NCBI GenBank assembly: GCA_030600555.1
Contig: JAUVLW010000004.1
Location: forward strand, 1 to 47,955
Length of the DNA: 47,955 bases
Source: Candidatus Aenigmatarchaeota archaeon
GTDB taxonomy: Archaea > Aenigmatarchaeota > Aenigmatarchaeia > QMZS01
Direction of reading: 5' to 3'
Shown: positions 9,529-28,001 of the stretch, piece after piece
Numbering within the stretch: the stretch's first letter is position 1
How the letters are laid out: every line of letters starts with the position of its first letter
Made by a program: the position numbers and the translations under genes
Notes under the pieces: generated by a model
Databases searched by the model: none
Seen by the model: only the letters and a program-made list of their open reading frames with translations
What the model was told of the DNA's origin: nothing

Positions 9529-10602
9529 TCAAACATATCTCAAAATAGCCCCAATCCCCCCAAGGTTATTAAATTCAACTCCTTCCTGAGACGAAGTGGA
9601 TATTAATTCCATTTGAATTCCCATTTGCTCGCACAAATCTTCAATTTTATCCATATTTTTAAATTCTTCTGAAACAAGAACAATCTCTGCTTTTCCTTTT
9701 TCAATAACCATAAACGAATCCACTTCCCCGTAAACCACTTCACCTTTTCCCTGGCTCAGTTTAACGAAAAAGTCTTTTAGTAAATCCTGTTCTTTCACAA
9801 ACTCGGTTTCTTTTATTAATTCTCTCCCTCTTTCCAGAGTTTCCCTAATTCCGGGTTTGTCTGTGTCCGAAGTATCAACAATACCAATAACATTATCCGC
9901 AAGGGATTTAAGAAGATAATTTTCTTTTTGAAATTTTTCTTTTATTGGTCCTGGACCTGATAAAATTATTCCTTTGAGATCTTCTTTCTCAAGCAATTCT
10001 CTAGCTGTTGCAGCGATTTTCTGAAGGAATGAAACTAATAAATTTTCTCTTACTCTCGAATACCTTACGCTGCTTTGTCCACCAGCTCTTGTTTTTCCGG
10101 GAACAAGCGAGGTCATGTGTTTTAAAATAGTTACTCTTTTTCCGTAGATTACCGCAATATCAGCAGAGCTTTTGTCCATACAGATAACCCCGTAACTTGC
10201 TTTTTCTTTCATAAATTCTTTTAAAGGTTCGGTTTCAAATTTCTGGTCGCACCTGTATAATTTAATTCCTACTTTGTCTGGCGGGGTTATTATATAAAGT
10301 CTAAGATCTGTTTTGCCCTCATCTTTTGACACATTTCCGCAGAATATTGCAAAACCATTCTCTGGCAGAGTTTTGTATAACTTTAATTCCTGGGTGATTT
10401 TTTCAAGAGCCCCAAGAACATTTTTTCTTACTGTCTTATTTTTCACATTTCTTGTTAATGCTATTTCCTGACCGATAAACTCAGAGGCTTTGTTAAAATC
10501 GCTTCCTGCGGGGATATAATAGGTTACCAGTTCTGTATGCCGTCCTCTCACGCTTTCAAGCTCTCTTAGTATCTTTTTCAACTTAAGTTTGTCAACATCC
10601 AT
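9529..10602 (-). CDS. prf1: Peptide chain release factor aRF1
   Basis: RHTELVTYYIP, YRCDQKF (YxCxxxF), AGGQS, GPGP.KE, LGGIGAILRY. Confidence 0.96.
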   Translation of the reverse strand: MDVDKLKLKKILRELESVRGRHTELVTYYIPAGSDFNKASEFIGQEIALTRNVKNKTVRKNVLGALEKITQELKLYKTLPENGFAIFCGNVSKDEGKTDLRLYIITPPDKVGIKLYRCDQKFETEPLKEFMKEKASYGVICMDKSSADIAVIYGKRVTILKHMTSLVPGKTRAGGQSSVRYSRVRENLLVSFLQKIAATARELLEKEDLKGIILSGPGPIKEKFQKENYLLKSLADNVIGIVDTSDTDKPGIRETLERGRELIKETEFVKEQDLLKDFFVKLSQGKGEVVYGEVDSFMVIEKGKAEIVLVSEEFKNMDKIEDLCEQMGIQMELISTSSQEGVEFNNLGGIGAILRYV

Positions 10603-10711
10603 AAACCTTTTTATTTGTTAAGTTAAATAATGGGCATGTAGCTCAGTAGAATCGCAAACACTAAAAATTGCGGTTTTGAGCAATTGGATAGAGCACCGCC
10701 CTTCTAAGGAG

Positions 10712-10811
10712 AACCCTTTTCAACGTAATTGTTGAAAAGGATGTTCTACGGAAAGTAGAACATATGTTTTTTCTTTGAAAAAACAAGTTCTGCACCCCAA
10801 AAAAGGTAATT
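10712..10811 (+). repeat. tRNA intron family A, copy 1 (in the Arg 37/38 intron)
   Basis: 10734-10803 matches the reverse complement of 27887-27956 at 69/70 nt; multi-hairpin. Confidence 0.92.
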
Positions 10812-10873
10812 GGTCAACAATTAATCAATTATTAAAGTGGGTGAAGAAGTTAGGCGGGGGTCGCAGGTTCAAA

Positions 10874-10934
10874 TGAGGATTTTCTTTTTAAAAAAGAAAA
10901 TACCTCAACCCAAAAGAAAACACAAATTGGAAAA
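10874..10934 (+). repeat. tRNA intron family B, copy 1 (Arg T-loop intron)
   Basis: TGAGG.TTTTCTTT...AAAGAAA..ACCTCAA..CAAAAGAAA...AAATT is shared with the Glu 37/38 intron. Confidence 0.8.
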
Positions 10935-10976
10935 TCCTGTCATGCCCATATTTATATTTATTAAGTGATCATAATT

Positions 10977-12842
10977 TCATTTATGTTTTTTCCCATGATG
11001 TTCTCTTTTGTGTTTATTTCGTTTTTCTCTTTCCTTTGGAGGTATGGTTCTTTCATCAACTTCCCCAATATTTTCCAGGAATCCAGCATTATCCGCGTTG
11101 TATTGAGCAAAATAAGTTCCTATCTGTTTATAATCGCTAATTTGGTTTTTTGCCAGCCAGTTGAGAAATTTTATTTTATTTAAAATATCCGCATCCATAT
11201 CAACTTCGTTTATTCCTGTTCGGTCAACAATATTTTTTAGCACCACAGATTTATCCGCGATTATAAATTCATCGGATTTTGGGTCCCATTTCGCAAAGTT
11301 ATTTACTAAAGGTCTTTTTGTTTTGTAATCCATTCCAGCAATTTCTTCTATAGCAGTTATTCTTCTGAATATTCTATCTCCTATTTTAACTCTCGAAATA
11401 AAAACAATAACATCCAGAATTTCAAGCAAAGTTGAAGGAAGGTTTATTGGTTCTGTTATTAAACGGTCAATCAAAGTATCAATACTCTCGGCGTGGATGG
11501 TTGCGAGTCCGGGGTGTCCCGTAGCCATTGCCTGAAATAAAACAAAAGCTTCTTTACCCCTAACCTCACCAACAATAATCCGGTCAGGTCTTTGCCTTAA
11601 ACTTTCTCTTAGCAAATCAAATAAAGTTACTGAACCCCGACCTCCTGTGGTAAGCGCTGACCTCGCAACTTCTGGTATCCAGTTTGGATGAGGCAATTGA
11701 AGCTCACCAGTATCTTCAATACTCACAATCTTTTCTTCTGGTTTCGCAAGCATTGAAATTGAGTTTAAAAAAGAAGTTTTACCTGAACCCGTCCCTCCTG
11801 AAATTAAGATAGAACGACCATTTTCCATTGCAAACCAAAGATAGGCCATTATATTAATGTCGCATGTGTGAGACAATACTTGTTTTGATGGGGTGAAAGG
11901 TTCTTTGCTAAATCTACGAATTGTAAAGTTTGAACCTCTTCTTGCAATATCTGTTGCTAAAGTTGCCTGGACCCTGCTGTTATCAGGCAGGATACCATCA
12001 AGCAAAGGGTGAGCAACAGAAAGATCCCTTCCGCATCTCTGAGCCAGTTTCATCACAAAAGAATCCAGTTTTTCAGCATTATCAAAAGCAACATTTGTTT
12101 TTATCGAACCAAATCTTGAATCCCTATGCACGATGTAAAACGGAATATTTGTTCCATCGCATGAAATATCTTCTATATTCTCATCCTGCAATAAAGGTTC
12201 CACCATATCAAAACCAAGGAAATCCCTGTAAACATAATACCTGAAAATTTTTATCATTGATTCTGGAAGATCTAATTTGAAATAATCAATAGCATCATCA
12301 ATTTTTTTAAAGATGTAATTTCTTGCCTCAAACTTTTTTATTGCCGCAAAATCAATATCAATTTTTTCCCTGATGTAATCTTTCAGAACATTCAAAACCT
12401 GCTTATCATATTCGCTTATTTCCGGCTCCACAATTTGATAGATTAGTTCATTACCTGCGTCATTCCAATGTATATGAGTATAAGCGTATATTTCTTCCCC
12501 TCTTTTTGGTTGACTTGGAATTAAAGGATATTTTATTGATATTGTGCGCAAGTCCTGTTTTTTGAAAGATTTTTCGATTGGTTTTATATTTGATTCTACA
12601 TATGGAAAAGGCAAACCTTCCCATTTAACGGCTTTCTTTTTATCTTTGTTCATCCATTCAAAATTTGGAGGAAATTGCCATTGAGGTGGTTTATCTTTTT
12701 TTGGTTCTTCCTTAGGTCTTTCTAATTTAGGCGGTATGTAATTTATTACAATAGGCCTCTTTTTTAAAACATAGTTTATACTTTTCTTTAGTTTTATTGG
12801 TTTCCTTTTCTTAACCCTCTTTCTAATAATTACTTTTACCAT
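10977..12842 (-). CDS. Type II/IV secretion (T4P/archaellum-family) ATPase
   Basis: IEDISCDG, GSNFTIRRF, Walker A GGTGSGKT, SIEDT.EL, LRQRPDRIIVGEVRG, TGH...TIHA. Confidence 0.93.
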   Translation of the reverse strand: MVKVIIRKRVKKRKPIKLKKSINYVLKKRPIVINYIPPKLERPKEEPKKDKPPQWQFPPNFEWMNKDKKKAVKWEGLPFPYVESNIKPIEKSFKKQDLRTISIKYPLIPSQPKRGEEIYAYTHIHWNDAGNELIYQIVEPEISEYDKQVLNVLKDYIREKIDIDFAAIKKFEARNYIFKKIDDAIDYFKLDLPESMIKIFRYYVYRDFLGFDMVEPLLQDENIEDISCDGTNIPFYIVHRDSRFGSIKTNVAFDNAEKLDSFVMKLAQRCGRDLSVAHPLLDGILPDNSRVQATLATDIARRGSNFTIRRFSKEPFTPSKQVLSHTCDINIMAYLWFAMENGRSILISGGTGSGKTSFLNSISMLAKPEEKIVSIEDTGELQLPHPNWIPEVARSALTTGGRGSVTLFDLLRESLRQRPDRIIVGEVRGKEAFVLFQAMATGHPGLATIHAESIDTLIDRLITEPINLPSTLLEILDVIVFISRVKIGDRIFRRITAIEEIAGMDYKTKRPLVNNFAKWDPKSDEFIIADKSVVLKNIVDRTGINEVDMDADILNKIKFLNWLAKNQISDYKQIGTYFAQYNADNAGFLENIGEVDERTIPPKEREKRNKHKREHHGKKHK

Positions 12843-13258
12843 TATCTTGAAATTATTACGCTGTCTTCAGTTGAATGCAATACAAAATATCCCGCTGAAC
12901 TTGTTGCCAACCCATTTGTTAAGATGTCTTCGAAGTTGGATAATTTTCTGGTTATCCCTCCATCGCTTCTAAAGTTGCGAACATTAATATAATTCTTGCT
13001 TAATGAAATTGTGTATCTTGCATCAGATAATTTTTTAGGGATTTCCACGGTGATGCTGCAATCTGCTGATTTTCCGCATAGATACGCTTTTGTTGTTGCC
13101 ATTGAAACAAGGTTGGACATTATATAATATTGTTCTGTCTGAGCCTGTTTTTGAAGTGAAGTGACAAAAGAAGCGACGGTTCCCGCAAGAGATAAGGTTA
13201 TTAATGCACCTATGCCAAATAACAATAATTCATTAATCGCCTTATGCTGTCCCTTCAT
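12842..13258 (-). CDS. Class III signal-peptide pilin-like protein
   Basis: MKG/QHKAINELLLFGIG hydrophobic helix; stop overlaps the ATPase start. Confidence 0.75.
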   Translation of the reverse strand: MKGQHKAINELLLFGIGALITLSLAGTVASFVTSLQKQAQTEQYYIMSNLVSMATTKAYLCGKSADCSITVEIPKKLSDARYTISLSKNYINVRNFRSDGGITRKLSNFEDILTNGLATSSAGYFVLHSTEDSVIISR

Positions 13259-13272
13259 AAAAATATAGATTT

Positions 13273-13875
13273 TTATCTAATATCTACTAATACAAGTGTT
13301 TTTGTGAAAGGTCCTCTTTCCTCACCCATTTTGCTTATCACTATCTTTGAACCTTCAGAGCCTATAATGGTTGCGTTGTATGGGGTTATAATATCCAAAA
13401 GGTAAACACTCCCGTCGCTTTTCGTGAGATTCCTGTAGATTATTTTGTAAGTTGTGAGAGAAGCGTAATTATCGAGCATGTGAACATAAACTCCGGTAAC
13501 AGAATAAGAATCTTTTCCAAACTCGCCTCCTGTTGTGTTGCAACTTTTGCTGAAACATATAAATTGTCCTCCTCCGTAGATAGCAGTTTCTGTTTGCACC
13601 GAGAATTCTATTGTGTTGTTTTTTGCGTTTATCTTTATTTCCCCGGGAATATTAAAAACAAGTTCTTCTATTGAACCTAATTTTGCGACCTCATCAACTT
13701 TTTTATCAAGTTTGAAAAGGAAATTTTCCGCTTTGTACAAAGTTGGTTTATCCATATTTCTCTGAATCATTGGCATCCCCCAGGTGTAAGCAACTGAAGT
13801 AACCACAAGTAGAACACCTATAAGCATAATTGAACTTATTACCACAGAAGCTCCTTTAAATTTTCTGGAATTCAT
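13273..13875 (-). CDS. Archaeal pilin-like protein
   Basis: MNSRKFKG/ASVVISSIMLIGV...WGMPMI. The start is placed at ATG 13875 because the ORF-track extension runs into tRNA-Gly. Confidence 0.8.
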   Translation of the reverse strand: MNSRKFKGASVVISSIMLIGVLLVVTSVAYTWGMPMIQRNMDKPTLYKAENFLFKLDKKVDEVAKLGSIEELVFNIPGEIKINAKNNTIEFSVQTETAIYGGGQFICFSKSCNTTGGEFGKDSYSVTGVYVHMLDNYASLTTYKIIYRNLTKSDGSVYLLDIITPYNATIIGSEGSKIVISKMGEERGPFTKTLVLVDIR

Positions 13876-13899
13876 AATTATCACTATAAATAGATTAAA

Positions 13900-14046
13900 T
13901 GCGGCCGCCGGGATTTGATTACGGCATTGTTTAAACAAAGTCAAACGAATGTACCCGGGTTACTGGCTGTTACCGAAACTTGACCTGGTTTATAATATCA
14001 AAATTTTCGTGGGAAGCCAGGATCCTAACCACTAGACTACAGCCGC
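13900..14046 (-). tRNA. tRNA-Gly(CCC) with two introns (37/38: 13969-14009; 54/55: 13919-13952)
   Basis: Exons join to GCGGCTG-TA-GTCT-AGTGGTTA-GGAT-C-CTGGC-TTCCCAA-GCCAG-TAAC-CCGGG-TTCAAAT-CCCGG-CGGCCGC-A. Both BHBs have one mismatch in the central helix (TTCC/GGTA, CCGG/CCGT), with intron helices GAAA/TTTC and CATT/AATG. Confidence 0.9.
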
Positions 14047-14089
14047 ATAAAAATAGTATTTAGATAAATTATTTAGGGATATTTATAAT

Positions 14090-14611
14090 ATGAAACTGGA
14101 AAAAATTAATATAATTTTAGTAATTATTTTAACTATTTTCTTAATTATCGGTATTCCTCCAATAATAGATTGGGATTTATCTGAGATTTTACCTTCTGAA
14201 GAAAAGATTCATATTATAATTGAACCTGATTATATTAGTGAGGGTCAGTATCCTGAAGGAAGATCAATTAAAGTGATAATCCCAAATATTGCTAAAAATA
14301 ATATTACTTATTTAAAATTATATAAAAATAATGTAAAAGTTGCTCGTCTAAACAAAAATAAAGATACTAAAGTATCTGAACTTTATTGGGATGGCGGTTC
14401 TAGTTATGACAAACCATTAGTGATAGATTATGAGATATCTGGTTTCTCCAAAGATAATTTAACTGCTTCTGGAGAACTACAAGGATGCCCAAATTGTTTT
14501 GAAGGAGAATATTCACCATATCAATTTACTTTTATAATTGATTACAAAATAGGGGGCAGTGATATAATAATTACCACCAAACCTATAAAAGTGAAACTTC
14601 CAATAATCTAG
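14090..14611 (+). CDS. Hypothetical membrane-anchored/secreted protein
   Basis: N-terminal hydrophobic helix; beta-rich body with CPNC. Confidence 0.65.
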   Translation: MKLEKINIILVIILTIFLIIGIPPIIDWDLSEILPSEEKIHIIIEPDYISEGQYPEGRSIKVIIPNIAKNNITYLKLYKNNVKVARLNKNKDTKVSELYWDGGSSYDKPLVIDYEISGFSKDNLTASGELQGCPNCFEGEYSPYQFTFIIDYKIGGSDIIITTKPIKVKLPII

Positions 14612-14650
14612 TTAGTAACCGAGTATTTAATCAAAAAATGAAAGAATTTT

Positions 14651-15661
14651 ATGATGGAGATTGATGGAAATTACCTTGAGGGGGGAGGTCAGATACTAAG
14701 GACTTCTGTGGCTTTATCCTGTTTAACCGGGAAGCCAGTTCATATATTCAATATAAGGGCTGGGAGACCCACACCAGGGCTAAAAGCTCAGCATCTGGCG
14801 GCGATATCCGCTGTTGCTGAACTGTGCAATGCAAAGCTTGAAGGGGGCGAAATTGGCTCAGAAGAGATTTCTTTTCATCCTGGGGAAATTAACAAGGAAA
14901 AACTGACAATTAATATTTCAACCGCGGGTTCTGTGGGTCTGGTTTTGCAGGCTATTTTTCCCGCATGCGTTAATTTAATTAAACCTCTTAAAATTGAGAT
15001 TATTGGGGGAGGGACTTTTGGGAAATGGGCTCCTTCAGTTGTTTATCTCCAGAAAGTATTTTTGCCGATTCTGGAAAGATTTGGTTTTAAAGCGGATGTG
15101 AAAATTCTCAAACACGGGTTTTATCCGAGAGGCGGAGCTAAAGTTGTTGCGGATATTTTCCCATCAAAATTGAAAGGTTTTTCTATCGATGGCGGAGTTG
15201 ATAAAATTGAAGGAATCTCAATTGTTTCTGAAAAACTGAAAAACGCAAAAGTTGCGGAAAGGCAGGTTGATGGGGCAAAGAAAATTCTTGAGAAATTAAA
15301 TCTACCCGTTGAAATAAAAACCGAATATGTTGATTCAACTTCGGTCGGAACAGGAATTGAACTCTGGACAGATAAAACTATTTTGGGGGCGGGAACTCTC
15401 GGAGAAATTAGAAAAAAAGCTGAGAAAGTTGGGAGCGAATGCGCTGAGATCTTGAGTAAGGAAATTAATTCGGGGGCGACAGTTGACAAACATCTTGCAG
15501 ACCAGTTGATTCCTTTTATGGGTCTTGCGGAGGGAAATTCTGGTTGCAAAATTTCTGAACTAACCAACCACACAAAAACCAATATTTGGGTTATAGAGAA
15601 ATTCTTGGATAGAAAGTTTGAGATTAAGACTATGGGGGGTTTGTATGAGGTTTGTGTTTGA
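14651..15661 (+). CDS. rtcA: RNA 3'-terminal phosphate cyclase
   Basis: IDG.YLEGGGQILRT, IRAGRP.PGLKAQH, TAGSVGLVLQ, GFYPRGG, VDKHLADQLIP, T.HTKTN (adenylated His). Confidence 0.96.
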   Translation: MMEIDGNYLEGGGQILRTSVALSCLTGKPVHIFNIRAGRPTPGLKAQHLAAISAVAELCNAKLEGGEIGSEEISFHPGEINKEKLTINISTAGSVGLVLQAIFPACVNLIKPLKIEIIGGGTFGKWAPSVVYLQKVFLPILERFGFKADVKILKHGFYPRGGAKVVADIFPSKLKGFSIDGGVDKIEGISIVSEKLKNAKVAERQVDGAKKILEKLNLPVEIKTEYVDSTSVGTGIELWTDKTILGAGTLGEIRKKAEKVGSECAEILSKEINSGATVDKHLADQLIPFMGLAEGNSGCKISELTNHTKTNIWVIEKFLDRKFEIKTMGGLYEVCV

Positions 15662-15712
15662 ATTGTAATTGTTTCTTCAATTTTTTATTATTCTTTAAGT
15701 CAATAGATAAGT

Positions 15713-16429
15713 ATGAGGAGTAAGGATAAGTTAAATTATCCTCACCAAACCGACTCTGATTTTTTTGGATTTACAAGTGATTGGCATATTGGCAATAAGC
15801 ATGCAAATGAAAATTATATTTTAGATTATCTGGATTTATTAAAAGAACGCGGGGTAAAACAGATATTTCACGGGGGTGATTTGTTTGAAGGTTATAAAAT
15901 ACACCGCCGTCAAACAAATGAACTGCTTCTTGATTGTTTTGGAATGGAAGAACAGATAAAACATTTTAATAATTTAATCCCAAAACAAAAAGATTTAAAT
16001 ATGAAATTAATTTCAGGCAATCATTTGATTAAGAATCATAAAGGCAAGAATGTTGTTGAAAAATTATGCTATGAAAGAAGTGACATAGATTATCTTAGTA
16101 AGTATGATGGTCTTGTTAAACTGAAAGATGGAGTTGCTATGGAAATAATCCATCCGAGCAGAGGGTCTCTGTATAAAGGATTATCTGAATTTAATGAATA
16201 TCTAAATTTATGCCAAACCAACCCGGACATTCTTGGCGTGGGTCATAAACACATATCCAATTGCCATTTATATAATAATGTTGTTTGTTATCATTTGGGA
16301 ACTTTTCTTAGCGAATCAAATAAGAGAAACAACAAATTTTCACCGGATATCGGAGCGTGGATAGTTGAGTTGGATATTGATAATGGGGAGATACTTTCTA
16401 ATAAGAGTGATTGGATTAGTTATGAGTGA
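15713..16429 (+). CDS. Calcineurin-like metallophosphoesterase
   Basis: SDWH, HGGD, SGNH, IIHP and GHKH motifs. Confidence 0.88.
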   Translation: MRSKDKLNYPHQTDSDFFGFTSDWHIGNKHANENYILDYLDLLKERGVKQIFHGGDLFEGYKIHRRQTNELLLDCFGMEEQIKHFNNLIPKQKDLNMKLISGNHLIKNHKGKNVVEKLCYERSDIDYLSKYDGLVKLKDGVAMEIIHPSRGSLYKGLSEFNEYLNLCQTNPDILGVGHKHISNCHLYNNVVCYHLGTFLSESNKRNNKFSPDIGAWIVELDIDNGEILSNKSDWISYE

Positions 16430-16509
16430 ATATTTTTTATCCCTCTCATTATCTCTACAAGGTCTTTTAATTTACTCAATTCCATATCTCTGGCAAAAGA
16501 TTAAATTAT

Positions 16510-17925
16510 TTAATTAACCCCCTCTTCAATAATTGTCTCTTTGGTAACTTCTTTTGTTAGTTTAATATCTTCGGTTAATTGTTTTTGTTTCCAGGTCCCT
16601 TTTGCGAACCAAGCAATTGTTATAACTGCGGCAATAACATTAGCCACTGGAAACGCTATCCAGATACCGAGTTCTGCAAGAACTGTGTGTTTTGATAATA
16701 GATAAGCTAAAGGAAATCTTAGAACCCACAGGGAAACTATGGATAAAACCAAAGGAATCATTGTGTTCCCTGAACCCCTAAAAGCCCCGTTCAAAGACAT
16801 TTGCACTCCAATGAATCCAAAAGTTAAAGCCATTATTTTAATAAACAAAGCGGTTGCTTTAATGGTTTCCAATTCCCCTGGAATAAAGATTGCGGAAATC
16901 TGCTCAGCAAATAGAAAAAATAAAATTCCCACTAGAGTTAAAATAATGAATCCTGTTAAAGAACTTAATTTTGCTATTTTTTCCGCTCTTTCCATTTTCC
17001 CTGCGCCAATGTTCTGACCAACTAAAGTTGAAGTTGCCATAGACAATCCTATTGCAGGAAGAACAATGAAACTTAATATTCTGCCCCCAATACCATAAGC
17101 GGCTAAGGTAAGAGTTCCAAAACCCGCAACTAAAAATGTCATGACAAGTATACCTAACGCTCTTGTTGATTGTTCAATGGAAGCTGGAACTCCCAACTTA
17201 AACATTTTTTTGAGCAAAGGAACATCAGGTTTTAAATCACTTAATCGCAAATGTATTTGATGTTTCCCTCTCAGCAATATTATTATGCCAATTACTGCGG
17301 CTATTCCCTGAGTAATTATTGTGGCAACAGCAGCCCCACCCACGCCAAGAGCTGGAATAAACCAATACCCAAAAATAAATAAAGGGTCAAGAATAAGATT
17401 TAAAAGAACAGTTCCAAAAACAATATACAAAGGGGTTTTAACATCCCCAACACCCCTCATCAATGATTGAAAGACCATGTAGGTAAACATAAAAATCATT
17501 CCAATAAAAGAAATTCTCATATACGAAACTGCTCCTGAAAAAACGCTGGATTCAACTCCCATCAAACTAATAAGTTGAGGAGATAAAAAATAACCTAAAC
17601 CAGAAAGGATGATTGAGACAATAACCATCATCAACAAAGTTTGACACGCAATATGATTTATTGCTTTTTTGTTCTTTTTACCTTTGTATTGAGCAACAAG
17701 AATTGTGCCTGCTATTGATAATCCGCCCCCTAAAGAAATAATCAGAAAAATAAGAGGGAAACTAATGGAAACTGCGGCGATTGCATCTGTGCCAAGCCGC
17801 CCAACCCAAAAAGTATCTATTAATTGATAAGCTGATTGCAATATACTCGCAAAGATAATGGGTACTGATAGAGTTATCAGGGATTTTAAAATAGATCCTT
17901 CAGTCAAGTTATTTCGCTCTCCCAT
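16510..17925 (-). CDS. MATE family efflux transporter
   Basis: NLTEGSILKSL..LSVP, IDTFWVGRLG, RG.GD.KTPL, NLILDPLFI; about 12 TM helices. Confidence 0.95.
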   Translation of the reverse strand: MGERNNLTEGSILKSLITLSVPIIFASILQSAYQLIDTFWVGRLGTDAIAAVSISFPLIFLIISLGGGLSIAGTILVAQYKGKKNKKAINHIACQTLLMMVIVSIILSGLGYFLSPQLISLMGVESSVFSGAVSYMRISFIGMIFMFTYMVFQSLMRGVGDVKTPLYIVFGTVLLNLILDPLFIFGYWFIPALGVGGAAVATIITQGIAAVIGIIILLRGKHQIHLRLSDLKPDVPLLKKMFKLGVPASIEQSTRALGILVMTFLVAGFGTLTLAAYGIGGRILSFIVLPAIGLSMATSTLVGQNIGAGKMERAEKIAKLSSLTGFIILTLVGILFFLFAEQISAIFIPGELETIKATALFIKIMALTFGFIGVQMSLNGAFRGSGNTMIPLVLSIVSLWVLRFPLAYLLSKHTVLAELGIWIAFPVANVIAAVITIAWFAKGTWKQKQLTEDIKLTKEVTKETIIEEGVN

Positions 17926-17964
17926 TTATGTATAATCAATTTAAAATCTTATCAGATTGTTCGC

Positions 17965-19491
17965 TTAAACAACAACCTTCCTCGCAATCCCAACAATCTT
18001 GTCAAAGTCTTTCCGGTTTGGTTTATACTTTGCGAATTCAACAAGACTGCACATACCCAGACATTTCTGCACATCCAGATATTTTCCATTTTTTTTCTTC
18101 CTCATCAGTTTTAGCAAATCTGTGTTTGTGATTTCTTTTTTAGTTCCTAATTTGTAAGAGAAATAAAATCTTACTCCCCGAGAAACTTTCTCATAGGCAT
18201 CTTTTTCTTTCTTATCCCCAAACAATTTTTCAGCCTCAACAATCATTTTTTTTGCTTCTTTTTTGTAATCAACGGGTTTGTTTAGGTTTATTTCAGCAAT
18301 TTCTGTTTGCGGGTTAACAACTCTAAAATATTTATTGTAAATAACCCAACCAACAATGCAAGCCAACAAAATCAGCAACACCCACCACAGATTATTTGAA
18401 CTTTCTTCGTCCTTTTTTTCTGATAAACTTACTTTTTCAATTTCCCCGTCAATATATTCAGCAGTGATATTCATGGATTTTCCTTCGCTGTTATTGTAAG
18501 GAATGGTTATTTCCGTGTGGTTCTGGGTTAATTGATTAAATTGAGGTTGCGTGTTATTAAATCTTTTTAACTGTTCTTCATTGAATTTCTGAAACTCTTT
18601 GTTCTCCCCAAGTTTTTGCATCATTTCCTGTTTATCTTCTTCAGTCAGAGACCTGAGATTCTCCATAGTCCCGTTCTTCATCTCGCCTTTCAAAGAAGCT
18701 TTTTCACCTCCAGGCTTGCTGTAATTAAATTCAAATTTACCTGAATCATTTGCTGAGGGGTCAAGAGAAGTTTCTTCAGGAGTGTACCCTTTATCCATCA
18801 TTTCCTGATGTTTTTCCTGAAGTTCAGAATTATTCTCAAGATTCTTTTTGAATTCTTCCTCCATTTGTTTTTGTTCCTGAACCTGTTTATCCATCTGTTG
18901 TTTCAGGGCCTTTGTGTCCTGATTCATCTGGTTGTTCTGAATTTTACTGCTCGCGGGATGTTGTTGAGGTTCCTGGGGTTCTTGTTGTGGTTGTTCCTGA
19001 GATTGTTGCTCTGATTTCTCAGAAGAACTTTGCATAGGATCTTCCTCATTTTTTTGCTGATTCTGATTTTCCACAAAATAGATTAAAAATTCATCAAGTT
19101 CAATTGTCACAGGAACTTTTTCATTGTAATTAAATTCCAGTTTTACCCTTAAAGTTGTTGGTTGATCAGAAGTTCCAAAAGCAAAATTTGCTTTACTATA
19201 TCCATTTTCCACAACGAATGATTTTGATTGTGAATGAACTTTTGAACTATAGAAACCGCCCTGATTAATTTCCTGCGTAATTGTATAAGTTAATTGTCCT
19301 TTAATTCGTTTCCCGTAAGTGTTGTTTTCATCCATTTCAATTATCGCATCCTGACCAATAAGAAAATAATATTCTGTTTGGTTTAATGAAAAAACAATAT
19401 CTTCCGCAAAAACAATATTTGTTCCGGTAAACATTAAACTAAGTGCCAAGGCAAAAATCAATCTTCCCAGTAACCCGCAATTTATATTCAT
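17965..19491 (-). CDS. Secreted/membrane protein with Gln-rich linker (last gene of the MoxR-vWA operon)
   Basis: Signal peptide, Q/E/P-rich region, TM helix (NLWWVLLIL), C-terminal LVEFAKY.P motif. Confidence 0.75.
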   Translation of the reverse strand: MNINCGLLGRLIFALALSLMFTGTNIVFAEDIVFSLNQTEYYFLIGQDAIIEMDENNTYGKRIKGQLTYTITQEINQGGFYSSKVHSQSKSFVVENGYSKANFAFGTSDQPTTLRVKLEFNYNEKVPVTIELDEFLIYFVENQNQQKNEEDPMQSSSEKSEQQSQEQPQQEPQEPQQHPASSKIQNNQMNQDTKALKQQMDKQVQEQKQMEEEFKKNLENNSELQEKHQEMMDKGYTPEETSLDPSANDSGKFEFNYSKPGGEKASLKGEMKNGTMENLRSLTEEDKQEMMQKLGENKEFQKFNEEQLKRFNNTQPQFNQLTQNHTEITIPYNNSEGKSMNITAEYIDGEIEKVSLSEKKDEESSNNLWWVLLILLACIVGWVIYNKYFRVVNPQTEIAEINLNKPVDYKKEAKKMIVEAEKLFGDKKEKDAYEKVSRGVRFYFSYKLGTKKEITNTDLLKLMRKKKNGKYLDVQKCLGMCSLVEFAKYKPNRKDFDKIVGIARKVVV

Positions 19492-19497
19492 TTTAAT

Positions 19498-20448
19498 TTA
19501 AACAACAATCCGATACCTCCCGTAAATAATATAAATATTTATCAGCAACACAATCAAAGCAAACACAAAAAACCAATCCTTAATGCTTGTGTTCTCCCAC
19601 TCCCTTTTTATATTCTCGCTGATATTTTCATAAACTTCATCCAGGGTATTTTGGTCAACGGATTTGTAATATTTCCCTCCGGTTTCAGAAGCAATATTTT
19701 TCAGGGTTCCTTCATCAAGTTCAGCGTACTGAGGTCTTCCAAAATAATCATAACCAAGTATTGTTGGTTCTTCAGAACCCATTCCAATGGTGTGGACCTG
19801 AATATCGTTTACTTTCGCAAATTCAATTGCTTCCGCAGGACTCACAACCCCTGCATTATTCACTCCATCGCTTAATAAGATTACAACTTTTTTCTTGTTT
19901 GGTATGGAAATCGCCATATCAATCCCCAAACCCAAACCATCGCCTATTGCGGTTTTACCCTGTCTCTGTTCAATTAATTTTAATTTTTCAACTGCAAGGT
20001 CTTTGAAAGGAGTTAAATAAGCCGCGGTAGTGGCTCCTGATTCAAATATTATAATACCAATATTATCTTTTGGTTCAAGACTGTTTATCAAAATTTCCGA
20101 AGCTTTTTTAGCGGCTTCCAGTCTTGTTGGTTTATAATCTGCTGCCGCCATGCTTCCTGAGTCATCAATAACAAGGACCACATTCACCCCTTCTTTTTCG
20201 GTTTTCAGAGGGATTGTTGGGTCTGCCAAACCAATAATTATTGAAGCTACTGCAATCAGGAGAAGAATAAATGGCAGGTGCGCACGCAGGTTTATTTTTT
20301 TATAACCTGCATTTTTTATAATTCCCAGAGAACTAAATTTGATTGAACTTCTTTTTTTCTTTTCGTTGTAGATTTTGTAAAAGTAAATAATCAAAGGGAC
20401 AACTAATAAAAAAATTAATATCCAGGGTTCTCCAAATTCAAATCCCAT
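19498..20448 (-). CDS. BatA-like von Willebrand factor A domain membrane protein
   Basis: F.EPW.L..L N-terminus, MIDAS DDSGS, TAIGD, LLSDG.NN, ASETGGKYY. Confidence 0.92.
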   Translation of the reverse strand: MGFEFGEPWILIFLLVVPLIIYFYKIYNEKKKRSSIKFSSLGIIKNAGYKKINLRAHLPFILLLIAVASIIIGLADPTIPLKTEKEGVNVVLVIDDSGSMAAADYKPTRLEAAKKASEILINSLEPKDNIGIIIFESGATTAAYLTPFKDLAVEKLKLIEQRQGKTAIGDGLGLGIDMAISIPNKKKVVILLSDGVNNAGVVSPAEAIEFAKVNDIQVHTIGMGSEEPTILGYDYFGRPQYAELDEGTLKNIASETGGKYYKSVDQNTLDEVYENISENIKREWENTSIKDWFFVFALIVLLINIYIIYGRYRIVV

Positions 20449-20449
20449 T

Positions 20450-21331
20450 TTATCTCACCATCCTCTTTTTCCTTAACGCGAAGAATTTTCTAAGAGGAGC
20501 ATAAAAAGAATCATCAGTATTTAATTGAATAATATCTATCTTTAACTTTTTCATTTTTCTTAATAATTCATTGTTTATTTTACTGGCTTGAGCTTTGTAA
20601 GTATTCCTGAAATTTTCGTCTGCGGTATTCACAAGAACCTGTTCCCCGGTTTCCTCGTCTTCAAGGAAAATATATCCCAAATTAGGAATCTCTTTTTCTA
20701 TTGAATCAGATAATTTCACAAGTATTACATCATGCCTTTTCTTTAGAAATTTTATGGGTTTCTCAAATGACCCGGAAACATAATCGGATATTATAAAAAT
20801 CACGCTTCTCTTTTTTATTATTTTGCTTAGATGGACTAAAGAATTATTTACGTCAGTTTCCCTGTGTTTTGGTTCATAATAAATTAATTCCCTTAGCATT
20901 GCAAGCAAGTGTTTCTTGCCCTTTCTTGGTCTGAAGAATCTCTCGATTCTATCGGTAAATAAACACATACCCACATTATCATGGTTCTTCAACGCTGAAA
21001 ACATCAATGCCGCGGAGATTTCAAACCCAATTTCTTTCTTTGCTTTTCTGTGACCGAAATTACCGCTTGCCGAGATGTCTGAGACAATATAAATATCAAG
21101 GTCTCTCTCCTCTATAAACTCTTTTACAAAAGGCGAATTATATCTTGCTGTAACTTTCCAGTCAATTGTCCGGATATCATCGCCCGGGATATATTCCCTT
21201 ACTTCGGAAAATTCAATTCCTCTTCCCTTAAAAACTGAATGATAGTTTCCGCACATGAGACCCTCAACCAATTTATTTGTTTTTATTTCGAGTTTTTTTA
21301 CCTTTCCAATTATCTCTTTTACTTTAGGCAT
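20450..21331 (-). CDS. DUF58 family protein
   Basis: G.YHS.FKGRG.EF.EVREY.PGDD.R.IDW.VTAR. Confidence 0.93.
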   Translation of the reverse strand: MPKVKEIIGKVKKLEIKTNKLVEGLMCGNYHSVFKGRGIEFSEVREYIPGDDIRTIDWKVTARYNSPFVKEFIEERDLDIYIVSDISASGNFGHRKAKKEIGFEISAALMFSALKNHDNVGMCLFTDRIERFFRPRKGKKHLLAMLRELIYYEPKHRETDVNNSLVHLSKIIKKRSVIFIISDYVSGSFEKPIKFLKKRHDVILVKLSDSIEKEIPNLGYIFLEDEETGEQVLVNTADENFRNTYKAQASKINNELLRKMKKLKIDIIQLNTDDSFYAPLRKFFALRKKRMVR

Positions 21332-21336
21332 TTTAT

Positions 21337-22323
21337 CTAAGGGGTTTCTATTTTTGAAAGAATATCATCGATTATTTTATCTGCCATTATATCTTCTGCC
21401 TCTGCTTCGTAGGTTAATATTATTCTGTGCCTTAAAACATCGTGAGCTATTTCTTTTATATCTTCTGGGATTACATAACCGCGACCGTTTAATAAAGCAT
21501 GAGCTTTTCCCGCTAAAATGAGCCATATTGAGGCTCTTGGAGAAGCCCCATAATCAATCAGTTCTCTTATCTTCAAGCCGTAATCTTCAGGATGTCTTGT
21601 TGCGTCAACAATGCATGCAACATATTCTTCAATTTTCTCATCAACATAAATTTTCCTGTTGAATTCCTGAATCTTGATTAGTTCTTTTGAGTTCATGATG
21701 GGTTTTGTTTTGATTTCAATTCCCTGCGTATTTCTTTGGATAATAATTTTTTCTTCATCTTTCTTTGGGTATTCGATTATTAACTTAAATGTAAATCTAT
21801 CAACCTGAGCTTCAGGAAGTTTGTAAGTTCCTTCGGTTTCAATTGGATTCTGTGTTGCCAAAACAAGGAATGGTTTATCAAGTTTAAAAGTGTTTCCCTG
21901 AATGCTTACCTGTTTTTCCTGCATTGCCTCAAGCAAAGCTGACTGTACTTTTGGAGGAGCTCTGTTAATTTCATCCGCGAGAATAAAGTTGCTGAATATT
22001 GGTCCTTTTTGCGTGTAGAAATTTCCTTTTTTATTGTCATAAATCTGGGTTCCTGTTATGTCCGCGGGGAGCAAATCCGGGGTGAATTGTATCCTGCAAA
22101 AGTTTACATTAAAGGTTTCTGACAAAGTATTTACCATCAGAGTTTTTGCCAGTCCGGGAACTCCTTCAAGAAGAACATGACCGTCCGCTATTAAACAAAT
22201 AATAAGTTTATCAAGAATCTCTTCCTGCCCCACAATAACTTTTTTTACTTCGTCCAACACTGAATTTAATTTCTCTGAGTGAATTTGAGCCTGCGAGTTT
22301 AATTTTTTAATTTCCGAGTTCAT
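21337..22323 (-). CDS. moxR: MoxR family AAA+ ATPase
   Basis: GHVLLEGVPGLAKT, RIQFTPDLLPADITG, LADEINRAPPKVQSALLE, ATQNPIE.EGTY.LPEAQ.DRF. Confidence 0.95.
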   Translation of the reverse strand: MNSEIKKLNSQAQIHSEKLNSVLDEVKKVIVGQEEILDKLIICLIADGHVLLEGVPGLAKTLMVNTLSETFNVNFCRIQFTPDLLPADITGTQIYDNKKGNFYTQKGPIFSNFILADEINRAPPKVQSALLEAMQEKQVSIQGNTFKLDKPFLVLATQNPIETEGTYKLPEAQVDRFTFKLIIEYPKKDEEKIIIQRNTQGIEIKTKPIMNSKELIKIQEFNRKIYVDEKIEEYVACIVDATRHPEDYGLKIRELIDYGASPRASIWLILAGKAHALLNGRGYVIPEDIKEIAHDVLRHRIILTYEAEAEDIMADKIIDDILSKIETP

Positions 22324-23369
22324 AATTATAGGTGTAAAATAATAAATCTATTTCTTTAAGAATAAGTTGCCGGATACAAAACCAATTTACTAAAAATAAA
22401 TAATTAATGTTATGTCTATTTCAAATCCATTGATTTCTATAATTATCCCTACTTTGAACGAAGAAAAGTACATTCTTAATCTGCTTGACTCGATAAAAAA
22501 GCAGACATATAATAATTATGAGATTATCGTCTGCGATTCGCATTCAGAGGATAAAACACCTCAAATAGCAAAATCTTTCGGCTCTGAATTTATTTTGGTA
22601 GATAAAAAAGGTCCGGGACCTGCTAGGAATCAGGGCAGGAAAAAAGCAAAAGGAGAATATTTATTGTTTCTTGACGCAGATGTAATAATTCCGGATGAAG
22701 ATTTTCTTGCAAGACTCATAAAGCATGTAGAGAAAGAGAATCTCGGTCTCGCGAATGTTTTCCAGTTTCTTCATCCGTTTAGTGTAAAAGATATTCCCGC
22801 TAACATTGTAGTGAATATTTATTTCAAACTTTCTTCTTATTTTAGTCCAATAGGCGGCGGGTTTTTCATTCTTGTAAAAAAAGATGTTTTTGATGAAGCC
22901 AATGGTTTTGATGAATCAATAAATGTGGGTGAAGATTCAGATTTCATAAGAAGAACCAGCAAAATATCAAATTACAGCATGCTTAATCAATATATATTTT
23001 ATTCAAATAGAAGATTTGAACTGGAAGGGCGACTGAATCTGTATTCAAAATATATTTATCTGCATTTTGATGAACTGCTTGAACCTGTCCTTGGAAAAAT
23101 TGAATTAGACTATAAATTCGGGCATTATAATCTGAGCAATGAAACCAAAAAATACAATTTTCTTATGGATAGAATAAATTTTATATTTCATGAAAATAAA
23201 AATGACCTTCTTGAGCTTTACCGAAAAAATATTATAAAAATCAAAAACAGTCAGGAAATAACTAAAATTAAAAAACTAAGCAAAAAACTAAAGACTAAAA
23301 TAAAGTTTCCTTCATCGCAATAACTTTTTTCACTTCATCTAACACTGAATTTAATTTCTCTGAATAAAT
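22233..23369. repeat. 52-nt imperfect direct repeat (22233-22284 and 23318-23369); the second copy is a moxR 5' remnant
   Basis: 47/52 identical by manual alignment; the copies encode IHSEKLNSVLDEVKKVI and IYSEKLNSVLDEVKKVI. Confidence 0.85.
22412..23323 (+). CDS. Glycosyltransferase family 2
   Basis: ISIIIPTLNEE, ARNQG, LLFLDAD, GFDE...GED.DF. Confidence 0.92.
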   Translation: MSISNPLISIIIPTLNEEKYILNLLDSIKKQTYNNYEIIVCDSHSEDKTPQIAKSFGSEFILVDKKGPGPARNQGRKKAKGEYLLFLDADVIIPDEDFLARLIKHVEKENLGLANVFQFLHPFSVKDIPANIVVNIYFKLSSYFSPIGGGFFILVKKDVFDEANGFDESINVGEDSDFIRRTSKISNYSMLNQYIFYSNRRFELEGRLNLYSKYIYLHFDELLEPVLGKIELDYKFGHYNLSNETKKYNFLMDRINFIFHENKNDLLELYRKNIIKIKNSQEITKIKKLSKKLKTKIKFPSSQ

Positions 23370-24838
23370 CATTCCAAATAATCACTATCAACTCTTCGAC
23401 CTTTAAATGTCTTTTTTCCATGATAGTTTGCATAAACATCCCCGATAATTTCTTTACTCTGACCAATATATTGAATAGGATCTGTAATATTTCTTAAAGT
23501 ATCTTCAGGTAATAGGTCAGTGATTTCTTTATTTTCCAGCACTATTTCAACAAAAGGTCTTTTGGCATCGTATGCTTCGGTGGCAAGTTTCGCAACTAAA
23601 TCATGAGCGTATTCCCTCGTCATTGGATTTTCGGTTCTTGTCCTGTCTGTCAAATAAGTCATGACTTGTTGGGAAGTCGGGACCCCATAAGAACGTTCTA
23701 CTCTTTCCCTGCATCTGTCTTCAACAGCTTCAAGAACATACAATACTTTTGCAAGATTTCTTATAACATAATCTCCCCATTTGAAAGATTCTTCCAGAGT
23801 TATTCTATCTGTTGCCGAAGCTCTTAAGTCCCTTCCATAATCTAAACCGCAGGAACCCAAAGTTGTCTGCATAACCCCTCTCATGTAATTTGTAAAACCT
23901 TCAGTTTGTTCTTCTCTTCTCGGATTTCCGCCTTTGGCATCTTTGTGAGGCATTGCTGAGGAACCTTTATCTCCCATAGGGAATTTAAAAATACCAACAT
24001 CATCGCTTCTTCCCATCCTGATATAATGAGCAAGGTTTCCTAAAGTTTCTGAACTTCTTGCCAAAGCATAAACGCAATCCGCAATAAATTCTCTCCCCGG
24101 TATCTGAGCCGGAGCCATCATATGACCAACTTCACAAAATCCTTCGCAGTAGAGTTTCTCAAGTTTCTTTCCATTCATTTTTAAAGCAGTTGCGGAATGA
24201 TGATTTCCTGTTGCATCGCCCCATTTTCCTTTTATTGAATTGTTGTAAACATAATCCAAAAATTCCAAATCTGATTGGAGCATTTCCCCATAATGCGCAA
24301 AAGGTCTTCCAAGAACTGTTGGCAAAGCATCGTAAAGATGGGTCGTGTCCATGTGGGGAATGTTCATCCAGTCAACGCTTCTTTCAAGAGTAATATCCCT
24401 TAAATTTTCAAGTGAATCCGCAATCACCTCAATTGATTTTTTGAGTTGCATTGCTTTTGCGGTTTCGGTGGTGTCCGCGCTTGTTCTTCCCTTGTTAATA
24501 TGAGCCGCAGCATTATCACTTACCTGTTCGCCCAAAGCAGTATTTATTGCAATAACATCATGTCCTGTGAGTTCTTCAAGTTCTCTTATCCTGTTTGGGT
24601 TTATTTCTTTAAGATTTGCTTTTAATTTAATTTCTCTTGCATCATTTTCAGGGACACTTTCAGGGTATAAATAACTCATAGCGCCAACAGCATCTGATTG
24701 AGCTCTTAAACAATATTCAAAAGTTTTTTCAGGACCCCAGATATTTATCATTTCTTTGGTCCCGTATCTTCCCGCAACAAGAGTGCAGGGATTGGTGTGT
24801 GAATCTATTCCTGTGGGTTTTGGCTTGGTTTTTACCAT
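23369..24838 (-). CDS. purB: Adenylosuccinate lyase (fumarase/ASL superfamily)
   Basis: RYG..EM..IW, E..T.HDV.A, H..A.PT..G, GATG, GSSAMPHK(DAKGG)NP. Start placed at ATG 24838. Confidence 0.85.
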   Translation of the reverse strand: MVKTKPKPTGIDSHTNPCTLVAGRYGTKEMINIWGPEKTFEYCLRAQSDAVGAMSYLYPESVPENDAREIKLKANLKEINPNRIRELEELTGHDVIAINTALGEQVSDNAAAHINKGRTSADTTETAKAMQLKKSIEVIADSLENLRDITLERSVDWMNIPHMDTTHLYDALPTVLGRPFAHYGEMLQSDLEFLDYVYNNSIKGKWGDATGNHHSATALKMNGKKLEKLYCEGFCEVGHMMAPAQIPGREFIADCVYALARSSETLGNLAHYIRMGRSDDVGIFKFPMGDKGSSAMPHKDAKGGNPRREEQTEGFTNYMRGVMQTTLGSCGLDYGRDLRASATDRITLEESFKWGDYVIRNLAKVLYVLEAVEDRCRERVERSYGVPTSQQVMTYLTDRTRTENPMTREYAHDLVAKLATEAYDAKRPFVEIVLENKEITDLLPEDTLRNITDPIQYIGQSKEIIGDVYANYHGKKTFKGRRVDSDYLE

Positions 24839-24877
24839 AAAATAGTTTAAACAGAAATTTAAGTATTGCAATGAAAA

Positions 24878-25606
24878 TTATTCATAAGATAAAGGAACAG
24901 CCCGATTTTTAAATACATACCTGTCATCTATATAACCACTTCCAGAATTACAACGAATCATCCAAGTAAGTGTATGATTTCCTTCAGGATAACTTATTAT
25001 ATTAATCATGTTTGTAAAAGTCTCTTCAAAACCATATGCATTTCCATATGTTTTCATATCCCAAATTAAATTTCCGTCCAAAAATACATTCAAATAAATA
25101 TAATGGTTAGTCCCTCCAGTATATCCTTTTAAATCAGCCTGAAGTTTTATATCTTTTATATTCTTATTCTTGTCTGCCGGGTCGGTTCTATCAATAATGA
25201 AACTATTATTTCCAACGAATACCCATGCACCGCCAGATATAGCATTAATTCTATTGGAATCATAAAATATTTGTTTATCTATATTATCTCTATCAACAAT
25301 ATAAAAATCAGCGCCTCCAAAACCAGATTCATTTATATTTTTGCAATTATTTCCATTTTCATCACAATATTGAGAAGCCATTATTTTATCATTTACATTC
25401 AAATCACCGGGAATATTCCACTGAGGATTTGCTAAGCCTGAATCATTAAAAGTTCCTGGACCAATCATCCCCGGATGCATTCCAGGGTTTGGATAATTTC
25501 CATAAGGTCCTGTTGAATAAGTTGCGAGAATTGCAGAGCCAATGCAAATTATAAAAGTTAATAAGATTCCGAGAGTAAGTTTCTTGTTTTGTTTGGATTC
25601 TATCAT
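24878..25606 (-). CDS. Secreted surface/fibre-like protein
   Basis: Signal peptide; NPGMHP..IGPGTF and GDLNV...YCDENGNNC motifs; beta-rich C-terminal domain. Start placed at 25606. Confidence 0.65.
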   Translation of the reverse strand: MIESKQNKKLTLGILLTFIICIGSAILATYSTGPYGNYPNPGMHPGMIGPGTFNDSGLANPQWNIPGDLNVNDKIMASQYCDENGNNCKNINESGFGGADFYIVDRDNIDKQIFYDSNRINAISGGAWVFVGNNSFIIDRTDPADKNKNIKDIKLQADLKGYTGGTNHYIYLNVFLDGNLIWDMKTYGNAYGFEETFTNMINIISYPEGNHTLTWMIRCNSGSGYIDDRYVFKNRAVPLSYE

Positions 25607-25652
25607 AATATATATATATAAGTAAAATATAACCAAAACCAGTTTAATATAT

Positions 25653-26570: not shown

Positions 26571-26593
26571 AATATATTAAATATATTCGTTTA

Positions 26594-27169: not shown

Positions 27170-27239
27170 AATCTACCATCAATTATTTTTATTAAGTCAG
27201 GTATTAATTTTTTATTAAACCAATTTTAACAATTATAAA

Positions 27240-27818: not shown

Positions 27819-27880
27819 AATTAATTATAAAACTATTTGGGTTATTAATATGCCCCTGCCGGGAATTTCATATACCCCAA

Positions 27881-27978
27881 AATTACTTTTTGGGGTGCAG
27901 AACTTGTTTTTTCAAAGAAAAAACATATGTTTTACTTTCCGTAGAACATCCTTTTCGACAATTGTATCGAAAAGGGTT
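27881..27978 (-). repeat. tRNA intron family A, copy 2 (in the Glu 59/60 intron)
   Basis: Same element as 10712-10811 in the transcript sense. Confidence 0.92.
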
Positions 27979-28001
27979 GCTTTGAACCCGGGTCACCGGC
28001 T

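Follow-up and report, generated by a model that had tools for sequence, protein, structure and literature searches.

The window, by which we mean the whole stretch of DNA analysed here, comprises 47,955 nucleotides of contig JAUVLW010000004.1 from an assembly of Candidatus Aenigmatarchaeota archaeon (GCA_030600555.1; 815 kb, 34 contigs, 82% complete; labelled G000 in our comparisons) and is AT-rich, with a G+C content of about 34%. We studied an insert in the anticodon loop of a tRNA-Arg(TCT) gene of this window, whose RNA is predicted to fold into a four-way junction, together with a similar insert in the T-loop of a tRNA-Glu(CTC) gene. Removal of the inserts in silico restored a canonical tRNA-Arg(TCT) and a canonical tRNA-Glu(CTC), and on this ground the inserts were taken as introns. 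The two genes are made up as follows.

10632-10948, + strand: tRNA-Arg(TCT) gene with three introns; spliced in silico, it is a canonical 76-nt cloverleaf, identified by ARAGORN as tRNA-Arg(tct)
10648-10682, + strand: D-loop intron of the Arg gene, ends uncertain by about 2 nt; several adjacent cuts are valid, and 10647/10683 gives a 4-bp D stem
10707-10851, + strand: family-A intron of the Arg gene, 145 nt, at the canonical position 37/38; exon ends 10706/10852 restore the loop CTTCTAA on the stem CCGCC/GGCGG
10874-10934, + strand: T-loop (59/60) intron of the Arg gene, a 'family B' hairpin followed by AACCCAAAAG
27851-28161, - strand: tRNA-Glu(CTC) gene with three introns; in-silico splicing gives a product that ARAGORN calls tRNA-Glu(ctc)
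27865-27980, - strand: family-A intron of the Glu gene, 116 nt, at T-loop position 59/60; junction domain, P2 helix, strand TGAA (27870-27867) and bulge ATT, with the splice site after AT

The original prediction, made from the sequence of the window alone, had placed the Arg insert at 10710 to 10851; in-silico splicing upheld the end, whereas the start was moved to 10707. The stretches removed from the Glu gene were a D-loop insert, 28071-28002 and 27980-27865 (- strand). The window also carries an interrupted tRNA-Gly(TCC) gene (14046-13900, - strand) with two inserts, in the anticodon loop and in the T-loop, neither of which has the family-A frame described below; 13900-14046 scores only 34.6 bits against the Rfam tRNA model. 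In the unspliced window, ARAGORN found none of the three tRNA genes and Rfam none at the gathering score, and a search of the genome with RF00005 yielded only 13 partial or whole tRNA genes.

The folds of the two family-A introns were predicted by energy minimisation, and the parts of the Arg copy that matter for what follows are these.

10710-10791, + strand: junction domain, in which AGAAC (10710-10714) and GTTCT (10787-10791) close three hairpins in both the minimum-energy and the centroid fold
10793-10843, + strand: P2 helix, CACCC (10793-10797) with GGGTG (10839-10843); its 5' strand is the family-conserved CACCCCAAA
10701-10704, + strand: exon strand CTTC (tRNA positions 32-35) of a 4-bp central helix, paired with GAAG (10846-10849)
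10846-10852, + strand: intron strand GAAG and then a 3-nt bulge TTA with the 3' splice site after TT, in the fold of arm plus intron

A four-way junction followed by a last hairpin had been predicted, and this arrangement was reproduced exactly by the minimum-energy fold of the Arg copy (10706-10855; -48.4 kcal/mol, z -6.70) and recurs in that of the Glu copy (27985-27860, - strand; -38.6 kcal/mol, z -5.73), with none of 200 shuffles as stable in either case. All of the strings on which the prediction rested were found at their places in the sequence. In the Arg copy, hairpin 1 spans 10715-10740 (11 bp), hairpin 2 spans 10741-10763 (9 bp) and hairpin 3 spans 10765-10785 (9 bp), and an extra 10-bp hairpin, GGTAATTGGT/ATCAATTATT, sits within P2 at 10805-10833, as had been proposed. 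In the Glu copy, hairpins 1 to 3 recur, closed by 3 bp (GCA/UGC), and the P2 hairpin, ACCCCAAAA/UUUUGGGGU, has 9 bp. The two copies are 93% identical across an 89-nt core. Five differences fall in hairpin 1, all of them pairing-neutral, and the compensatory changes predicted there (A-U to G-C, C-G to U-G and G-U to A-U) were confirmed in the Glu copy; a single difference falls in the next 63 columns, which run from hairpin 2 through hairpin 3 into the first part of P2, and this near-identity suggests recent copying. We found neither a C/D box nor a notable open reading frame (ORF), in agreement with the prediction: the box C motif RTGATGA has 20 matches in the window, none of them inside 10707-10851 or 27865-27980, and the ORFs across the intron have GTG or TTG starts and do not exceed 44 aa. 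We also observed runs of six T on the tRNA strand within the introns (10765-10773 of the window and other hairpin arms); T runs can act as archaeal transcription terminators.

In the predicted folds of arm plus intron, the tRNA stem of both copies continues into a 4-bp exon-intron helix and a 3-nt bulge that holds the 3' splice site, namely CUUC/GAAG with the bulge UUA (cut after UU) in Arg and UUCA/UGAA with the bulge AUU (cut after AU) in Glu. The predicted 5' splice site of both copies faces a multiloop from which the basal helix of the junction domain, P1, and the CACCCC helix P2 branch. The strict bulge-helix-bulge (BHB) form, hBHBh', is not found in these folds, which lack a second 3-nt bulge with the 5' site and a continuous inner helix; the splice motif may be described at best as a relaxed hBH, or as a three-way junction with P1 standing in for h'. 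It had been claimed that the Glu intron without its junction domain is a near-textbook BHB. The Glu T-arm folded in this way keeps the 4-bp UUCA/UGAA helix and the 3-nt 3' bulge, whereas its 5' side is a 5-nt by 3-nt internal loop, and for this reason the description was generous.

To place the junction in context, we compared G000 with 16 other genomes of the same family, which belong to the genera g1 (10 genomes), g2 (3), g3 (2) and g4 (1). The Arg junction domain, which makes up the 5' two-thirds of the intron, proved to be a copy of a family frame, ..AACCCTTT...AAG.TCTGCACCCCAAA. This frame consists of GCAACCCTTT, a variable apex and then the 17-mer AAGGTCTGCACCCCAAA, and can also be written as GCAACCCTTT...AAGGTCTGC followed by ACCCCAAA; we refer to it as the cassette. 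With up to 2 mismatches allowed, the 17-mer has 17 matches in G000 against 0 for a reversed control, and 16 of the 17 lie within tRNA genes when their flanks are read by eye. It is present in 12 of the 16 other genomes of the family (g1 8/10, g2 3/3, g4 1/1, g3 0/2), and the single matches seen in 6 of the 44 genomes of other families were taken for chance. An exact 17-mer scan of all species genomes was discarded, as the matches listed were rich in single bacterial chance hits, many of them in Streptococcus. A metagenome scan with a pattern of hairpin 3 plus frame gave 0 matches, and a gapped-frame scan gave 1 match, which lies in GC-rich coding DNA and was rejected as spurious.

A search of G000 with the core turned up many partial matches in which hairpin 1 and the 3' flank are kept and hairpins 2 and 3 are missing. 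Ten other tRNA introns of G000 carry the frame with one 23-nt apex hairpin, 43 nt overall, which bears out the proposal that the junction was inserted into a simpler intron; these one-hairpin copies include the T-loop intron of a paralogous second Glu tRNA (contig C12), whose 3' part is almost identical. Different cargoes of two or three hairpins occur elsewhere in G000 (C17 and C22; C3 and C25; C33), and the form with hairpins 1, 2 and 3 is present in three copies, in Arg, Glu and Leu(CAA), the last on C30. The introns labelled family A and family B follow a common grammar, a CCTTT...AAAGG hairpin and then CCC(C)AAAA; the family-B T-loop intron of the Arg gene shares it, as a hairpin followed by CCCAAAA. 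Looser anchors yielded 111 frame copies across 13 genomes: 45 follow the T-loop TTCRA directly and 66 are not at a T-loop. Of the 111, 99 passed the filter. In 42 of the 43 filtered T-loop copies, the frame starts one base past A58, immediately behind position 59. Of the cells of the basal stem and hairpin 1 in 17 one-hairpin copies, 94.1% are paired, and the closing pairs 1-37 and 2-36 covary in three of these copies (one change of GC to UA and two of CG to GC), a score reached by none of 500 shuffles. At the apex of the T-loop copies, the tRNA strand folds better than the opposite strand in 28 of 42, equally well in 6 and worse in 8, while the 51 copies in other contexts show no bias (20 better, 17 equal, 14 worse). 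The tRNA-strand bias of the T-loop apex points to a constraint at the RNA level on the intron hairpins.

We then built a covariance model of the three-hairpin junction from nine copies. Four genomes have clear copies (G000, G010, G007 and G009), and two more, G008 and G002, gave weak hits. Every one of these belongs to genus g1, and nothing was found in the 6 genomes of g2, g3 and g4. When flanks were read by eye, three of the nine copies lie in anticodon loops, three in T-loops and one in a D-loop, while two have no adjoining tRNA exon. The closing stem and all three hairpins are predicted for 7 of the 9. In the model-fitted alignment, 92.4% of cells are paired and 4 of 22 pairs have changed on both sides, a result reached by 6 of 500 shuffles; seven of the 22 pairs have at least one broken cell, and the events are few and come from four related genomes. 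The proposal that the fold is under selection is weakly supported: the pairing and the covarying pairs speak for it, and the small number of events, the number of broken pairs, which is about as high, and the restriction to one genus tell against it. The loops vary (GGAAA, AAA, GAAAA and TGAA; TTT, TCT, GAA and TCC), and the hairpins stay paired through substitutions and paired one-base-pair indels. A tenth, divergent copy (G009, contig C35, L191), which raised the covariation to 9 of 22 pairs, was dropped because it is an intergenic array of unrelated hairpins. Such intergenic strings of at least five abutting hairpins of 20-25 nt were seen at L191 (C35, 1500-1640) and in G000 (C9, about 24850-24985); their T-run 5' arms, A-run 3' arms and loops of 3-5 nt resemble the intron cargo in style, and their sequences differ from it.

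The turnover of the junction is rapid. At loci shared by G010 and G007, hairpin 2 is either gone from the G007 copy or merged with hairpin 3, and G010 holds both forms in two paralogous tRNA genes; this loss or fusion of whole hairpins accords with the predicted growth by hairpin accretion. The tRNA-Arg(TCT) genes of five congeners share the 5' leader and the downstream sequence, which suggests that they represent the same locus. At the orthologous position 37/38, G008 and G006 have no intron and an intact anticodon loop, and G005 (about 71 nt), G010 (about 100 nt) and G007 (38 nt) have unrelated hairpin introns, so that the junction is absent from this site in all five congeners examined. In the T-loop introns of the congener Arg genes, the 5' hairpin has been swapped and the 3' part retained. 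Among short T-loop copies, the identity of the 3' part is 0.71 between orthologues (8 pairs) versus 0.52 within genomes (63 pairs), while that of the apex is 0.70 between orthologues (8 pairs), 0.72 within genomes (63) and 0.65 between unrelated copies (307); with 8 orthologous pairs, this gives a weak signal only of concerted evolution inside genomes. Contigs assembled from four cold-seep or marine-sediment runs on 10400-28300 are interrupted within the cassette, at 10788 and at 27916, in the way expected of a repeat. In one low-depth X2 contig (depth 2.8), 27906-27968 is replaced by 16 letters that match a one-hairpin cassette; it was set aside, since either strain variation or a paralogous intron may account for it.

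Cassettes were also found beside gene starts, in tandem, and in reverse at the 3' end of T-loop introns of g2. In the last case (L087, L088, L090, L091 and L097 in G014 and G016), with the tRNA on the other strand, a forward 'family-B' cassette at the 5' end of the intron faces the reversed one, which gives the intron the look of an inverted repeat. Tandem cassettes occur at L171 of G005 and at L092 and L093 of G016; L093 (contig C31, about 350-800) has six cassette matches in 450 nt and a run of N, and is maybe a tandem array or a collapsed repeat. Small genes whose products begin MAEIVVKIPE... or MAEIESLLGR... (L103 and L106 in G013, L134 in G010, L145 and L149 in G007) lie in tandem, about 0.7-0.9 kb apart. 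Each is preceded, at 7 nt and on the other DNA strand, by a family-A cassette whose TATA-like apex, TTTATATA, falls at -30 to -23 of the ATG. Other cassettes abut divergent gene starts (G000 C22:28910, G003 L116 and G016 L099). A divergent ORF start lies within 15 nt of 8 of the 56 copies not at a T-loop, versus 213 of 2000 random positions; such starts are not enriched, and a single repeated gene family accounts for five of the eight. At L175 (G005, contig C75, 290-510), the 3' part of an Arg-like tRNA, made up of the 3' strand of the anticodon stem, the T-arm and the acceptor end, has a family-A intron in its T-arm and a cassette with other cargo before it; no 5' exons were seen in the 170 nt upstream, a TATA-like ACTATAAATT precedes it, and a full tRNA-Arg(TCT) lies on another contig (L331). 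Possible readings of this locus are one half of a split tRNA, a pseudogene and an assembly error.

Taking these results together, we consider it fairly probable that 10707-10851 is a relaxed BHB intron in which the base of the cassette flanks the 5' splice site and the apical hairpins are labile cargo. The 3' splice site would be displayed in a normal 3-nt bulge by the tRNA stem together with the 4-bp exon-intron helix. The other cut, at the 5' splice site, would fall in a three-way junction, where the basal stem P1 of the cassette would replace the usual inner helix beside it, and ACCCCAAA would pair with the 3' part of the intron to form P2 and tie both ends together. If the basal stem stacks on the 4-bp helix and acts as the inner helix for the 5' cut, then the phasing and the presence of a conserved base under a free apex would be explained. 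The apex of P1 could vary freely, and here may have grown to three abutting hairpins; these and the closing stem together form the four-way junction. Hairpins would be gained, lost and copied among introns as units and would leave with the intron, and the apical hairpins are probably without a function of their own.

In the proposed pathway, a single alpha-type EndA would cut and RtcB would join. One alpha-type EndA gene was found in the 82% complete genome (PF01974, C30:30794-31066, 90.5 bits); its product of 290 aa has one alpha unit and a lysine-rich N-terminal extension of about 115 aa. An RtcB ligase is also encoded (PF01139, C30:22302-23606, 576 bits). The tRNA-Leu(CAA) gene on the same contig has three introns, one of the junction type. 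We observed that RtcB, the Leu intron cassette (29434-29510) and EndA (about 30220-31090) all lie within 9 kb of this contig, with a pseudouridine-synthase-like ORF directly after EndA. An alpha4 EndA with an extra loop has been described by Kaneta et al. for DPANN lineages rich in disrupted tRNA genes, according to the accessible part of that paper (PMC5829648).

Several observations weigh against this explanation. The 5' site lies outside any 3-nt bulge, and the Arg copy has an extra GG between the cut and the closing stem, while a single alpha-type EndA is classically thought to require the strict motif, as stated in the accessible text of PMC3239211. In 75 of 99 copies, the opposite strand gives the better fold for the cassette as a whole, since A.C and C.U oppositions of the conserved base become G.U there, and this misfits a base that is simply an RNA stem. 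If the cargo is neutral, the identical letters of ACCCCAAA and of the base across three genera are left unexplained. Many cassettes lie away from recognisable tRNA exons, some of them in the opposite orientation. Finally, the covariation of hairpins 2 and 3, thin as it is, exceeds that of shuffles, which leaves room for some constraint on the cargo.

Some of these observations are what would be expected if the cassette were a non-autonomous palindromic element, MITE-like (miniature inverted-repeat transposable element) or 'introner-like', that inserts in either orientation, creates a spliceable intron when it lands in a tRNA loop and has formed the junction by nested or tandem insertions. The common frame is shared by different isoacceptors at 59/60, at 37/38 and in the D-loop, and some copies have no adjoining tRNA exon; the Arg 37/38 site is filled in some genomes and empty in others. 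The reversed cassette of g2, TTTGGGGTG, can pair with the forward CCCAAA in the manner of inverted terminal repeats (L087 and L088); tandem copies exist; and apices are slightly more alike within a genome than between different tRNAs across genomes. Many copies, in both orientations and in genic as well as intergenic places, are also a trait of hairpin-ended MITEs and palindrome-associated transposable elements (PATEs) mobilised by IS200/IS605. However, the 82% complete genome gave 0 matches to the Y1 transposase family PF01797 and one match to TnpB (PF07282), at 18.2 bits and under the cut-off, and no consistent target-site duplication was seen at the filled and empty Arg sites. In addition, the 3' parts of the introns track tRNA orthology and not the genome, which argues that whole introns are not freshly inserted units, and the strict phasing at position 59 could equally reflect selection for splicing. 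Eukaryotic introners and MITEs are short repeats with inverted or hairpin ends that lie in introns and between genes and multiply introns, and introners are the spliceosomal product of DNA transposons whose transposases are known. Neither a transposase nor a target duplication was found here, and the mobility of the cassette is hypothetical. We hold the insertion of such an element to be possible and rather unlikely.

Two further explanations assign the cassette a role of its own. The excised junction RNA, linear or circular, might be a stable, functional non-coding RNA (ncRNA) that has a protein partner or a role in trans and is expressed by way of the tRNA gene, much as box C/D RNAs are carried in the tRNA-Trp introns of Euryarchaeota. 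The high stability of both folds, the survival of pairing through substitutions and paired indels, and the block of about 64 nt (hairpins 2 and 3 and the start of P2) that is almost identical in two different tRNA genes would all agree with such a role. The junction is nevertheless confined to four genomes of one genus, hairpin 2 has been deleted at the same loci in close relatives, the orthologous Arg site of the congeners lacks the junction, and two of its nine copies lie outside tRNA genes; the variable loops display no conserved single-stranded motif, and no C box is present. A comparison with Rfam, which had been called for as a check, gave no known family, with 0 matches at the gathering score over the window and chance-level hits only at E <=10, and the suggestion of a new ncRNA class found no support in it. 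The alternative suggestion of a tRNA-shaped decoy fared no better, since the lengths of the arms and the loops are not tRNA-like and there was no tRNA hit at E <=10. A functional ncRNA is very unlikely in our judgement. Even less probability attaches to the cassette as a signal at the level of DNA, either as a module of a promoter or terminator or as a site bound by protein, whose presence in introns would be incidental. The TATA-like apex 7 nt upstream of the MAEIVVK... ATG (L103 and L106 in G013, L134 in G010), the copies that abut divergent gene starts and the lack of a tRNA-strand preference of the whole cassette could be read in this way, whereas divergent starts are not enriched, the apex sequence is highly different among copies, and the apical tRNA-strand bias and the phasing with the splice site would be unneeded.

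The relaxed BHB intron that we favour has a close parallel in the pre-tRNA-Cys(GCA) of ARMAN-2 (Ca. Micrarchaeum), also a DPANN archaeon, where a 59/60 intron is spliced by protein from a relaxed hBH motif; as far as the accessible part of Fujishima et al. 2011 (PMC3239211) goes, both systems have one normal bulge and one relaxed side, and numerous interrupted tRNA genes, in which as many as three introns occur. By the same source, the ARMAN-2 intron is 13 nt long and has no internal domain, its EndA is the three-unit epsilon2 type and cleavage has been shown in vitro, whereas the introns here are 116-145 nt long with a conserved cassette and multi-hairpin cargo, only one alpha-type EndA gene was found, and splicing is inferred from sequence and predicted fold. 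In the Thermoproteales, intron sequences common to different isoacceptors have been ascribed to 'large-scale intron transposition' (Fujishima et al. 2010, as reported in the accessible text of PMC4090602 and 10.64898/2026.10.13.758758). Near-identical introns in different tRNAs and positions are likewise found here (Arg 37/38 and Glu 59/60, 93% over 89 nt), in another phylum, the Aenigmatarchaeota, with one EndA gene found in place of the (alpha-beta)2 heterotetrameric EndA of the Thermoproteales. In contrast to what the accessible text of these sources describes, the shared unit here is a modular cassette with a conserved base and a variable apex and not the whole intron, and it is also extragenic, occurs in both orientations and is phased with the 5' splice site; no multi-hairpin junction is described for the Thermoproteales in the same text (PMC4090602, 10.64898/2026.10.13.758758). 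The Asgard archaea resemble the present case in having about two or more intervening sequences per tRNA gene that are missed by standard finders, and their tRNA introns show repeated gains on terminal branches; in the available part of the preprint (10.64898/2026.10.13.758758), copying between tRNAs is nearly nil (0.2% at 90% identity) and there are no donors, whereas here sharing across isoacceptors is the rule and extragenic copies exist. Our literature search found no paper on tRNA introns of Aenigmatarchaeota, and the supplementary tRNA tables of PMC5829648 and PMC3239211 may list comparable introns of DPANN archaea.

Multi-intron archaeal tRNA genes and shared intron sequences were already known, and the question to which these data speak is how such introns arise and spread, which the available text of the 2026 preprint calls 'the central open problem' (10.64898/2026.10.13.758758). 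The four-way junction itself is most likely cargo of modest importance. For annotation, it is relevant that standard finders miss the three interrupted tRNA genes of the window. The useful features of the family are a cassette locked to the 5' splice site, copies outside tRNA genes and in both orientations, the gain and loss of hairpins as units, and one orthologous site at which an intron is present, absent or replaced within a genus; with genomes of less than 1 Mb, these archaea form a compact system in which to study how introns are gained and lost and how far recognition by the endonuclease extends. We put forward only tentatively, and as a doubtful proposition, that the cassette is a short palindromic, intron-seeding repeat that brings its own splice-site helix, spreads in both orientations between tRNA loops and intergenic DNA and thereby gives rise to new protein-spliced introns, as an archaeal counterpart of introners, with an apex that accretes hairpins and of which the junction would be one snapshot. 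If true, this would supply the donor sequences and the route of arrival that studies of archaeal tRNA introns have lacked.

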